Shown: positions 4,835 to 23,900 of the stretch, in pieces | Layout of the letters: the number at the start of each line of letters is the position of its first letter | How positions within the stretch are numbered: the stretch's first letter is position 1 | NCBI GenBank assembly: GCA_024679065.1 | Contig: JAGIQG010000009.1 | Location: 100,812,001-100,876,000 of the forward strand | Direction of reading: 5' to 3' | Length of the DNA stretch: 64,000 nucleotides | Source: Sphyrna mokarran | Lineage: Eukaryota | Position numbers and translations under genes: made by a program | Notes under the pieces: generated by a model | What the model was told of the DNA's origin: nothing | Seen by the model: only the letters and a program-made list of their open reading frames with translations | Databases searched by the model: none

Positions 4835-5454
4835 CTGATGAGAGAGAAAAAAATACTGTACGTATCTGCACGGATCCTCATTCAGTCATTTAGTTTTACG
4901 AAATTTGCCACTTTTGCTTTGAGAAATGTTGTGCTATTCTGATTATATGCTAAACATACTTCAATATGATCAGTCCAGCTTGAATGTTAAACGCATGAAA
5001 AATGAACTGATTGTTGGTAAATACCCATCCTCTACTTTGAGAACAAACGAAGTAAATTTCATTAAAATAATCTCAAGATACATGTCACAGAACGTGAGTC
5101 TTGTATTTGCATTATTTTGAGCAATAATTCCAAAGGCAGATTTGATCATTTTGACGATTTTTTTTTATTATTTAACTTTATTTGTACTTAGTTTTTTTTT
5201 TGGTAAGTAATGCATATAACTTGTGAAGTAGAGAAAAGGTGAATGCATTTCGTACGTGAATGAAAAGTGTTAATAGATTTTGTAGTTAGAATATGTCACA
5301 AACATGGCCTTTCATCATGACTGATGCTCTCAAACTTATGCTGTTCCTTGGATTAATATGAGTTATTTGTTTGTGTCTTATATGCTATAACTCTCATTTG
5401 TATAAAGACAGATAGATTAATGTGCTCTTATTTTGTAGACTTTGTAAATCTTAC

Positions 5455-20429: not shown

Positions 20430-21690
20430 AGAACAAGTATCAGGATTAGGCGTCCCAAGACTTTGAGCCTGCTCGATCAGGTGATAATATCATGATTGAC
20501 ATGATATGAACCTAACGTCTGCATCCTGTCTACACCTGCCAATCTTTCACTTATCTGTTACCAACATTGCAGCCATCATTGTCATCAAAAACATTCAGAG
20601 AAACTGCACTCCCACCTTTTATGGAGATTTGTTCTGGATAATCAAGACATTCAGAGAGAAAACAAAATCGCCTAAACAACTTCTTTTTTTTAAAAAAAAC
20701 GAGCGACTGACCTTCTGAACAATGAAAATTCGCTCTAGATTGTCTCACATCACAAACAGCCTTTCCACATCTGCATTGTCATACATCTCTGGGTCTTAAA
20801 TATTTCAATCACAACGTGTCTTATCTTCGAAACTCTCGCTGACACAAATATAGTCTATCCGACATTCATTTTAATTAAATAATCAACCCAGTCAGAGTAT
20901 TTACTTTTCTTAAAAAGAAACTACCATTAATGTATTTGCGCAATTCTTGACGTAAGGACGAATAGTCAGCACATAACACTCCAGTGATGTCGACTCATGT
21001 TGTGCACTAATGACACGTTACTTTTCTACTTATATATTTAATTCGTCTTGGATTACCAAAAAGCTTTATTTATTACGTTCTGCACTTGAATAATAACGGG
21101 TTCTAAATCATTCAATAGAACATCGAAATCCCTCATCATTCAGTACTCTGCAATCTGTTACTATTTATATACTGTGCTTATTAAAAAAAAATCACAAAGC
21201 GCTGTTTCGGAATTTACCTCTTTCTTCTTCAGTTATCAGATTTCGAAACACTAAATTAAAGTATCTCAATATTTTCTAACATTTTTATGCCCTGTTCATA
21301 TTTTACCACACCCCACCCATCCCCCGTGCTTTGTGGTAAACAAGAATTTTGGCAACCACCTCTTCAACCGTTCGTCGACTTTATTTAAATAATGTGTAAA
21401 CCGTACCTGTGGTGCCTCATGTCTGACCGATTGCCAACCAGAGAAAAAAAAAGTTTTGTTTTTTGGCATCAAGCCCGTTTTCTACGCATAAAAAACCCTA
21501 TTTTGTGAGTTTTTTTTTTCAGAGAAAAAACAGTGTTGTTGTTTTCATTCTAATGTTTTCAGTAAATATAATTCCATAACACCCAGCTCCTTTCCTTTAT
21601 CTGCAGCGGACACTACTATCTTAAATCACTTGATGAAATATGATTTGCATTGCGGAAACCCGTGGTGATTATGCAAGACTACATTCAAGT
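20430..21690 (-). mobile_element. Old CR1, left part; interrupted by the R2-like insert
   Basis: Reverse tail at 20430; near 21560-21690 the decayed RT segment cctttatc...atgatttgcattgcggaaacccgtggtga. Confidence 0.55.
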
Positions 21691-21716
21691 GGCGGGAGTA
21701 ACTATGACTCTCTTAA
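21691..21716 (+). rRNA. 26-nt 28S rRNA fragment (upstream half of the R2 target); not an rRNA gene
   Basis: ggcgggagtaactatgactctcttaa is identical to the conserved 28S sequence that precedes ggtagccaaatg. Confidence 0.95.
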
Positions 21717-21850
21717 ATAGGGAAGGAGAGTCATAGTTACAATAGCTGTGTGAATTTTATCGCTCCTATAACACAGTGAGTTGCGCCTCCCCGATGGCCC
21801 CGTCGGCAACATCACTACTATTTGGGCGAGCAGTGATGGCTAAAGCAACT
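21691..21850 (+). ncRNA. HDV-like self-cleaving ribozyme 1 (intact-looking)
   Basis: P1 ggcggg 21691-96/cccgtc 21799-804; P2 agttgc 21779-84/gcaact 21845-50; P3 gcc/ggc with L3 tccccgat; P1.1 cc/gg; P4 catcact/agtgatg; J4/2 gctaaa with candidate catalytic C21840. Confidence 0.88.
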
Positions 21851-21914
21851 GGCCAAGGAACGAATCGCGGATGTAGTTGCATGTCTGTACCCAGTCAGAC
21901 TGCAGTTGCAAACT

Positions 21915-22086
21915 GGTGGATTGAGATTGGCTTTCATCCATTCATGCGGAAGAAGGGTCCATCCAGAATTGCCTATCTCAAGTAATTGTGCGAATCTTCT
22001 GGTTTCTATAACACAGTGAGTCAATCCCTTCCGCGGGACCCACCTGGTGTCGTCTCCAAGGGCACAGGAGATGGTATTCCATGACT
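21915..22086 (+). ncRNA. HDV-like ribozyme fold 2 (diverged)
   Basis: P1 ggtgg 21915-19/ccacc 22040-44; P2 agtca/tgact; P3 ccc/ggg with L3 ttccgc; P4 tgtcgtctcc/ggagatggta; J4/2 atypical (ttcca). Confidence 0.7.
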
Positions 22087-22099
22087 GGCCGAGAAACAA

Positions 22100-22305
22100 A
22101 TAGCGGGTGCGACTCATGCCCATACTATGACCACTCTCACCGGACTGTCAGCCAGGAGTGGTGTTGCTAGAGTAGTACTTGGTATGTTTAGCATAACTGT
22201 GGTTATCTTGGCGTTCTAAACCACAGTGAGTAAAACCTCACTGAGGTCCCGTAGGGTATTCAGGACTTCAAGCTAGCAGGTGATTGTCCTGAAGGGAATC
22301 TGACT
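22100..22305 (+). ncRNA. HDV-like ribozyme fold 3 (more degenerate)
   Basis: ctgtggtt/aaccacag stem then tgag; P3 acc/ggt with L3 tcactga; cccgta-gg; P4 ttcaggac/gtcctgaa; tgact. P1 5' strand uncertain and J4/2 non-canonical. Confidence 0.55.
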
Positions 22306-23060
22306 AGTCGAGAACTGCCAACGCCATTCTGTACCTGTAAACCTGGTAACCTGAAAGAAACTATGACTTGACAGGTCCCGTGCTGTTCCCGGGATAGTTG
22401 GTGAAATGCAGGTGACCGATGCGATCGCGCCTATCAAGGTAGCAGAAGCCTTACCGAGACATCCAGCCCAGGCGACTGGCTTCGACGGGAGACGATTGTA
22501 CCCGTATCTGGAGTGACGCAGCAAATGGACTGTGGTGCCCCGGCTCGTTCCTGATGATCGCTGGTCAGACGATGATGAAAAGGGGAAGGTTCGCGCGAAC
22601 CTCTAGAGACTCTTGTAAATTGACATTTGTCTTCTATGCCCCGAGAGATTGGGTGTGGTTAGACAGCGATGGGTGCAGCTCCCGGGTTGTGCGAGCGAGC
22701 TTCATACCGCGGTTGCGTTTTCGGTATTGTTCGGTTGTTCGTTGTACGTTTGTGTGTGTTACTTAATAAATCCGCTTTGTAACCAGATGATGTTTTATGG
22801 GTAAACGGCTCGGAGCAAACGAGCAAAAACTAACATACACGACAAACGCTTCCCAGTGATGTAACTCAATCCGCTTGTCTGCACTTGTGGTGGTTGTGGC
22901 TACATCGTTCTGAGATCAATTCCCCGATTCTGCCAATGGCCTAAGGGCTGTGATACCATCTGGTGGAAGACACTCTGATTCCCTTCAGAAGTGCGTGGCA
23001 CATGTCGATGAGCGACAACAAAACTCGAACAAGACGGTCTCCGAGTTTTTTCTCGAAAAT

Positions 23061-23900
23061 TAGCATATGTAATGGCGACGACTGCCACATATGTTCTCTG
23101 CGACATATGTTCAACTATCTGCCCTGCAGTTATGCCCTTTCTGCAGAATCCATCTTTTTTTTTAAACGGGGCGACATTGTTCCATTTCAAATAAGCTGTA
23201 CCTGTTTTGCATCTAGGAAGTTTTACAAAATTAAATCTACACATCCTCAACAAGTAATTTAAGAACGTGGAGGTTGTGCATTTGTCCTTGCATTTGTCAG
23301 GCAGCAGCTCTCACTATTCACTGAATGCCACTTCTCTCGAAATTATAATTTCCTTCGGTTTCTGGTCTTTTTCCCCGTTAAGTCAGTGTGTCACAGATCT
23401 TTCTGATGTTTTCTACAGAAATAACTGATGCAAAAATATATTTGATTCATTTCTCATTGTCCTGGTTTCCATTAAATGTCCTTCAGCTTCAATTTCTATT
23501 TGGGCAACGGACACACTGTTAACAATTTACTTTTCAGTTAATTTCTCACCGTTGATGTTCATTTCACTCACTTCCTTTCTCTTGCGCATTAATTATTCCA
23601 TCATTTTTAATCGTTGCATCGTTGGTCATCTTTCATGATATCATTTATTATTATTTTAATGCGCCAATTCAGCTTGCACAGTTACATGACTCTTTGTGAA
23701 GAATTTATTCTAGCTTTAACACAATTTATTAAACACGTATTTAAACTATGTCTATCGTACTTTCCTATTGTTTCTGTGAAGGTATTATGTGCATTCTGAA
23801 ATGATTTCTTAATGCTTTGTTACTGCCTCCCTTATTTTTCCCCCACCAATTCTGTTCAACGAGCCTAATTTTCAAGCGCTCACAATCGCTCTTATTGATG
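23061..23900 (-). mobile_element. Old CR1, right part; continues the copy left of the insert
   Basis: Decayed reverse-strand NYRPVSLT-region sequence (atgttcaactatctgccctgcagttat, aaacggggcgacatt) follows on from the segment at 21640-21690. Confidence 0.5.

Follow-up and report, generated by a model that had tools for sequence, protein, structure and literature searches.

A dispersed, non-coding R2 passenger in a shark genome that probably starts at a ribozyme cut within 28S RNA

Positions 21691 to 23059 of a 64,000-nt stretch of the Sphyrna mokarran genome (the window, meaning the whole stretch analysed; all features lie on its forward strand) hold a whole non-autonomous, R2-dependent element of 1369 nt. 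It has no tRNA head, and none of its five ORFs, of about 100 amino acids each, matches Pfam. Our preferred reading, to which we attach a probability of roughly 0.78, is that this non-coding R2 passenger was part of a ribosomal co-transcript that cut itself at position -28 of 28S relative to the R2 site, and that the RNA so released was copied through to its last base, likely by a lineage-A R2 protein, at a non-rDNA site with a loose likeness to 28S. Self-cleavage in vivo at G(-28) is well supported by comparison of the element's copies, and it is likely that the genome records the ribozyme cut.

The course of events would begin with a master copy in 28S, transcribed by RNA polymerase I. In this transcript an HDV-like fold, with 28S itself as the 5' strand of its helix P1, would cleave 5' of G(-28). 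The R2 protein would then bind a pseudoknot-hinge-stem at the 3' end of the RNA, read a degenerate motif at -25 to -19 of the target, nick it, prime on T-A-G-C-like DNA and run off the RNA's 5' end, often with one base added. Finally, the cDNA would fail to anneal to the poor target and would be end-joined within about 0–8 nt of the nick. Because it was end-joined and not annealed, the 28S-derived leader would have stayed visible, whereas in rDNA annealing would hide it.

The leader, at 21691–21716, is identical over 26 of 26 nt to 28S on an rDNA contig of the same genome (L031), corresponding to 28S positions -28 to -3; the distance of G21691 from the R2 site was counted with the downstream half of 28S taken from L090 and L107. 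In the rDNA contig this match is preceded by GTAAAC and followed by GG, whereas the window reads CAAGT before G21691, which bears out the proposal of a first-pass annotation, made from the sequence alone, that 28S identity begins abruptly at this base. The identity stops at -3 and not at -1, and the second nick of lineage-A R2 proteins, described as falling 2 bp upstream, fits a leader that ends near -3. Chance is rejected as the source of the match, its expected number of occurrences between the window and 4 kb of 28S being about 1e-7. An assembly artefact at the junction is likewise rejected, as 21500–21795 is covered with zero differences by a 16-kb contig from the public run X1, although X1 is possibly the assembly's own sample.

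The first six nucleotides of the leader (21691–21696) form the 5' strand of P1 and pair with 21799–21804 through one G.U, so that G21691 is the first base of P1, as had been annotated, with predicted cleavage immediately 5' of it. As far as the available parts of the source go (and the same holds for the other PMC entries cited here), -28 is the commonest cleavage site of R2 5' HDV-like ribozymes, the P1 5' strand of which comes from 28S -28 to -23, and 28S duplications of 13–28 nt at rDNA junctions have been reported as a trace of the cut (PMC3774820). The P1 5' strand of the element has the same origin, -28 to -23; unlike those ribozymes, the element leaves its cut trace at dozens of non-rDNA sites, is ORF-less and has two more folds behind the first. 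The next part of the leader (21698–21712) is 100% complementary to an element-encoded arm at 21726–21740, an inverted repeat that would form a J1/2 hairpin (RNAfold gives -28 kcal/mol for 21691–21760). The perfect 15-bp pairing annotated earlier is thus real in the window copy but confined to a minority of the family: position 21735 is G in 18 of 22 copies, which puts a G.U into the family arm, and most copies have one or two G.U pairs in the leader-arm helix, pairing being kept through G.U.

The HDV-like core occupies 21779–21850, its helices having been read from the sequence, aligned and tabulated in three families. It comprises P2 (21779–21784/21845–21850), P3 (21785–21787/21796–21798, with L3 at 21788–21795), the 3' strand of P1 (21799–21804), P1.1 (21789–21790/21805–21806) and P4 (21810–21816/21832–21838), followed by J4/2 with the putative catalytic C21840. 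The window and 63 heads from the three families have P1, P1.1, P2, P3 and P4 in the correct order as a nested double pseudoknot. The P1 5' strand is 28S from -28 onwards, as in R2-type -28 ribozymes. The catalytic C in J4/2 is present in all 63 parsed heads (64 were examined, one of them unparsed), in families that differ in the sequences of P2 and P4. Searches with Rfam at gathering and E-value thresholds matched no HDV-like or other family in the window or the element. The window copy is 8.5% off the family majority, with changes in P1, P3, L3 and J1.1/4; T21803, which makes the G.U in P1, is private to it (20 of 22 aligned copies have C), and the purine after P1 is lost. Because this copy has decayed, the present activity of its ribozyme is uncertain, which does not bear on how the copy was made.

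Behind this head lie two more HDV-like folds, seen in the family majority sequences. The second (21914–22086), found as a repeat, D1/D2, has an atypical L3 and J4/2, and its head has drifted; the third (22103–22305), identified by eye, has no C at the catalytic place. The two folds help to weigh a reading in which the RNA's 5' end was set without catalysis, by a 5'-3' exonuclease stopping at the P1 pseudoknot or by an internal promoter at that G. R2 folds are described as protecting RNA 5' ends (PMC11331408), and both internal folds have been conserved although they apparently do not cut, as this reading would have it. However, the catalytic C and the motif G-C-T-A-A-A are kept in the first fold only (63 of 63), and an exonuclease should also have stopped at folds 2 and 3, yet among 30 copies selected by their second fold not one starts at the predicted cut of that fold. 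Avian lineage-A and other -28 ribozymes, moreover, cut in vitro, and we regard a start without catalysis as very unlikely. The second fold likely does not cut, judging from these 30 copies, and the same is likely for the third, whose start is absent from 24 truncation points.

Copies were collected by searching the genome with the head (the best 40 of 205 candidates were scored), the tail (best 40 of 92) and the second fold (best 40 of 504, sister families included), and conservation between families proved highest in the core of the second fold. Alignments of the copies extend over about 1370 nt, at 75–89% identity, and, among the matches listed, end at the base matching 23059; the window copy and 57 other sampled places all lie outside rDNA. 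Among the rows listed for contigs from three DNA runs, none breaks off loosely at 21691 and none joins the two sides of the whole element, and hence they showed neither a junction with rDNA nor an allele lacking the insertion, a result uninformative as to absence.

Pooling the window family, its sister families and the autonomous R2, we obtained 69 leader-bearing copies, 31 of which start at G1, that is, G(-28), and 38 at positions 2–14. Extension into upstream 28S amounts to 2 bases at most, with no clearly earlier start, and the edge is therefore one-sided, with nothing upstream of G1 and a tail downstream. The search for the window family gave 58 distinct places; 34 of them pass the filter for the leader, with 17 starts at G1 (window copy included), and another five copies, which begin at leader positions 5–14, lie outside the filter; the second fold led to 19 new places, of which 14 carry the leader and six start at G1, with one scored at an inner duplicate; and 21 of 40 fetched copies of the autonomous R2 have the leader, eight of them starting at G1. 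Since the 5' flanks differ copy by copy, the start must have been re-made at each insertion. The one-sided pile-up at G(-28), together with the invariant catalytic C, favours the annotated claim that the start was set by a ribozyme active in vivo, as far as sequence can speak to activity. Starts elsewhere than G1, which form the majority among copies with a leader, count against a cleavage-set start. The first-pass annotation had asked whether other copies share the start and had taken varied starts as refuting the cut; sharing holds for the 31 copies and fails for the 38 that start 1–13 nt later, and refutation by varied starts was too strict a view, because end-joining would give starts 1–13 nt downstream.

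A T precedes G1 in 19 of the 31 copies that start there (p 5e-4 against 31%), and non-templated addition at run-off of the reverse transcriptase has been described as a mechanism (PMC3774820, in the part available). By a register test, the window has one such extra T, at 21690, likely a non-templated addition or else a 1-nt target duplication. Stalling of the reverse transcriptase at the fold was rejected as the cause of the start by reasoning, as a stall would be expected on the 3' side of the helix. Two sister copies that start at G(-28), L102 and L103 (G000:C993 and C882), carry a tandem duplicate of leader and hairpin in which the inner unit has lost G1-G2, an arrangement like that of the 5'-extension model in PMC3774820 (Fig. 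8).

At its other end, the element closes with an R2-type 3' module (23003–23059) consisting of a pseudoknot (23003–23027), a 6-nt hinge, a stem and an A tract. Its pairing was read by eye and includes one two-sided change relative to R2. The last 55 nt resemble the end of the R2 copy L107; beyond them, the 3' halves of element and R2 align no better than shuffles (110 vs 107 ± 11), and the 3' stem of the window family differs from that of the young R2. Pseudoknot, hinge and stem are the 3' architecture of lineage-A R2 (PMC12180492; PMC12222951; both in part). That the element extends to an R2-type 3' end at 23059, common to other copies, agrees with the earlier view of a full-length cDNA. A piece of 100–200 nt in the 3' UTR of R2 and of sister family B (L107 at about 5035–5235; L102 and L110) recurs in many unrelated loci and is absent from the window's family. 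This piece resembles a V-SINE core.

The insertion site of the window copy looks like a degenerate R2 target. Its upstream half (21662–21689) matches 28S -28 to -1 at 15 of 28 positions, including five of the seven at -25 to -19, T-20 among them; the other eight registers give 6–9 matches, and 15 is reached at 18 of 4541 nearby positions when the best of nine registers is taken. The downstream half, TTAGCA at 23060–23065, resembles TAGCCA from 28S +1 with a 1-nt slip. Across the family the consensus of the 3' flank is T-A-G-C-C: 28S +1 to +5 is matched in 46, 39, 33, 30 and 26 of 51 copies (one of 52 dropped), with a mean of 3.4 of 5 against 1.2 in the control, and in 36, 32, 24, 23 and 18 of 40 once clustered sites are removed. 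The corresponding counts for R2 copies are 31, 27, 23, 22 and 26 of 39. Positions +6 and +7 of the element flank match in 17 and 16 of 40, slightly above background, and were not counted as proof of an rRNA tail. Upstream, -25 to -19 is enriched in the flanks of both the element (4.38 vs 3.60, n=37, p 5e-5) and R2 (4.30 vs 3.65, n=23, p 4.5e-4), as tested on 60 of 68 singletons with clustered sites removed and the best of 11 registers taken for data and controls alike. Neither set of flanks is enriched at -18 to -11, and -38 to -29 shows at most weak enrichment (p 0.02–0.17). The rare off-target insertions of R2Tg are reported to have the same two features, at -25 to -19 and +1 to +5 (PMC12222951, in the part available).

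Two hot spots, with 6+4 and 4+4 insertions of element and R2 respectively among 90, are common to both, and together with the shared target signature they point to mobilisation of the element by the R2 protein, on the evidence of insertion sites. The repeats that host these hot spots are presumably CR1-like. Empty sites in host repeats show deletions of 1–8 nt (15 of 51 copies could be reconstructed, only about seven of them cleanly), and comparable deletions are described at end-joined R2 junctions (PMC11331408, in part). Two R2 copies, L138 and L158, have long target duplications of about 16 and 25–30 nt by eye, unlike the usual small deletion.

The same sites bear on the idea that CR1, L2 or RTE enzymes moved the element as they would any common SINE, or that it is a DNA fragment of rDNA, its -28 start having been inherited from one old event. 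Several copies do sit inside CR1-like repeats, as a SINE of this kind might. There is, however, no tRNA head, no poly(A) or simple-repeat tail and no regular target duplication, the 3' module and the target signature are of the R2 type and common to R2 copies, and the separate 5' flank of each copy speaks for a start renewed at each insertion; the common hot spots and flank consensus largely refute this idea already, and we consider it most improbable. A Pol III SINE was rejected outright, as the element has neither a tRNA-, 7SL- or 5S-derived head nor a match to any Rfam family.

The presumed source of the enzyme is itself dispersed. An autonomous R2 gives at least 120 matches in the genome (683 candidates), several with open frames of 1345–1358 amino acids. 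The frame of one copy, L139, has 1355 amino acids and three N-terminal zinc finger motifs by eye, two of which Pfam scored weakly; its best PDB matches are R2Tg and a turtle-type entry, at E 3e-215 for R2Tg against 5e-83 for 8gh6. By its single frame, finger motifs and PDB matches the dispersed R2 is a lineage-A R2. Flanks are non-28S in 40 of 40 fetched R2 copies where readable, and strict 28S site specificity is absent in R2 of the L139 type, though rDNA, too, contains an R2 end. Element majority, R2 majority and 28S agree in all of the first 21 nt, and the rest of the element and R2 heads is identical at 98 of 172 positions.

Whether the source copy sat in rDNA, as had been annotated on the strength of the leader, is a separate matter. 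Because all full copies carry the leader, it cannot tell an rDNA parent from a dispersed one. Other loci make an rDNA source likely for the lineage, as we hold with good confidence, and with somewhat less for this copy's parent, on which they say nothing directly. In the assembly the rDNA unit breaks at the R2 site: contig C1259 ends 2 nt past the site, and contig C1614 opens with 15 nt of an R2 3' end, after which the remainder of 28S follows. This junction belongs to the autonomous R2 and rests on the 15 nt at the contig start. A search for 28S from +1 onwards gave 23 places, 12 of them dispersed and located behind a 3' end of R2 type, recognised by BLAST or by eye. In ten of the 12, the 3–9.5 kb fetched contain no upstream 28S, and the tails measure 41–429 nt, with one longer and broken; among the ten dispersed relatives with a 28S tail only is an older member of the window family, L203 (74%). 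Such tails are rare, since none occurs among 90 sampled dispersed insertions (at most 9 of 12 matches) and the ten came to light only through the targeted search, and another reverse transcriptase could have copied them. L104, L107 and L110, from the targeted 28S search, have upstream as well as downstream 28S (L104 without the P1 strand) and are either uncut co-transcripts or insertions into 28S fragments.

Set against an rDNA source is a dispersed parent with the same ribozyme and R2 protein, in which the captured 28S leader makes a self-contained ribozyme that cuts any read-through transcript at the same G. P1 is present in every full copy, no rDNA-resident copy of the window's family was seen, and many dispersed R2 copies have intact frames (about 1355 amino acids), which makes dispersed sources possible. 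Yet the leader is unchanged from 28S in three diverged families while the partner arm, P2 and P4 drift, as did the head of the internal second fold; insertion flanks keep 28S +1 to +5; and there are the ten relatives with 28S tails. Non-28S 3' transductions were absent from 90 insertions, a sample too small to weigh much. We judge a dispersed parent unlikely and retain the ribosomal co-transcript as the source.

Beside these loci, L088 and L108 hold 245 nt of upstream 28S, 100% identical, that reach as far as -9, where sequence with no likeness to R2 takes over. A short frame in this stretch looks to us like a piece of a GIY-YIG endonuclease. The spacer on rDNA contig L105 contains long low-complexity and repeated frames.

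A broader possibility, which we put forward tentatively and with some doubt, is that a lineage-A R2 escaped rDNA by way of the captured 28S ribozyme strand: promoterless and able to cut itself from any read-through transcript, it could have spread dispersed copies, some intact, and three-fold passengers genome-wide at degenerate R2 sites. Were this true, hundreds of off-target sites and of 5' ends cut by the ribozyme would be preserved in the genome as a natural library.

Published work covers -28 cleavage, SIDEs and non-specific R2s one by one; the three combined, outside rDNA and in a shark, did not turn up in our literature searches. Like Drosophila R2 SIDEs (PMC3414825, in part), the element is non-coding and has a ribozyme head, an R2 3' end and an unrelated middle; those SIDEs lie inside 28S genes and are cut at their own 5' end, whereas the element, at 1.37 kb, has a 28S leader and is dispersed. 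It works like a SIDE and, lying outside the 28S R2 site, with only older or sister copies touching 28S pieces, is not filed as a canonical one. The genome's R2 resembles the lineage-A R2s of birds and turtles, R2Tg and PlaMe, in its three zinc-finger motifs and RT match (PMC12222951; PMC12180492; PMC11331408; as far as available), and shares with them the 3' pseudoknot-hinge-stem and the off-target signature at -25 to -19 and +1 to +5. R2Tg is reported as >99% on target in cells; here, a germ-line record holds off-target copies at least in the hundreds. R2-type elements outside 28S are described in flatworms, including R2NS-1_SMed and R2NS-1_CSi (PMC5035012), a cockroach (PMC7650587) and sponges (PMC13188248). 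In the parts available, these invertebrate R2s are described as non-specific, whereas the shark R2 is a vertebrate lineage-A element with a degenerate 28S preference, one that is still present in rDNA, retains its leader from 28S and is accompanied by dispersed passengers. Flanks of 28S served to identify the shark R2s reported so far in one study (PMC12247875, in part), and a 2026 review counts few R2s without specificity and calls for graded measures (PMC13580325, in part). In the literature searched, Repbase, subscription journals and supplements aside, no vertebrate R2 of lineage A is described as dispersed together with passengers that are dispersed as well.

Lineage-A R2 proteins are under development for gene insertion for their strict rDNA specificity, and this genome holds a natural relative of relaxed specificity with hundreds of insertion sites. 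These form a data set on what the protein reads in DNA, on 5' junctions made without annealing and on residues that tune targeting, and they offer many-copy genomic evidence for a -28 ribozyme cut in a vertebrate germ line, a cut mostly hidden in rDNA.

Relatives and older copies extend the picture. The R2 protein matched proteins of catshark and bamboo shark in a sequence search. With the stretch divided into 30 bins, contigs from public runs of two other organisms (X2 and X3) cover 24 and 22 of them, mostly at <95% identity, which indicates that the element family is common to relatives. Remnants of older R2 lineages, 65–73% identical, also lie outside rDNA (L109, L197, L198 and L202), and R2 dispersal would on their account have been recurrent over a long time.
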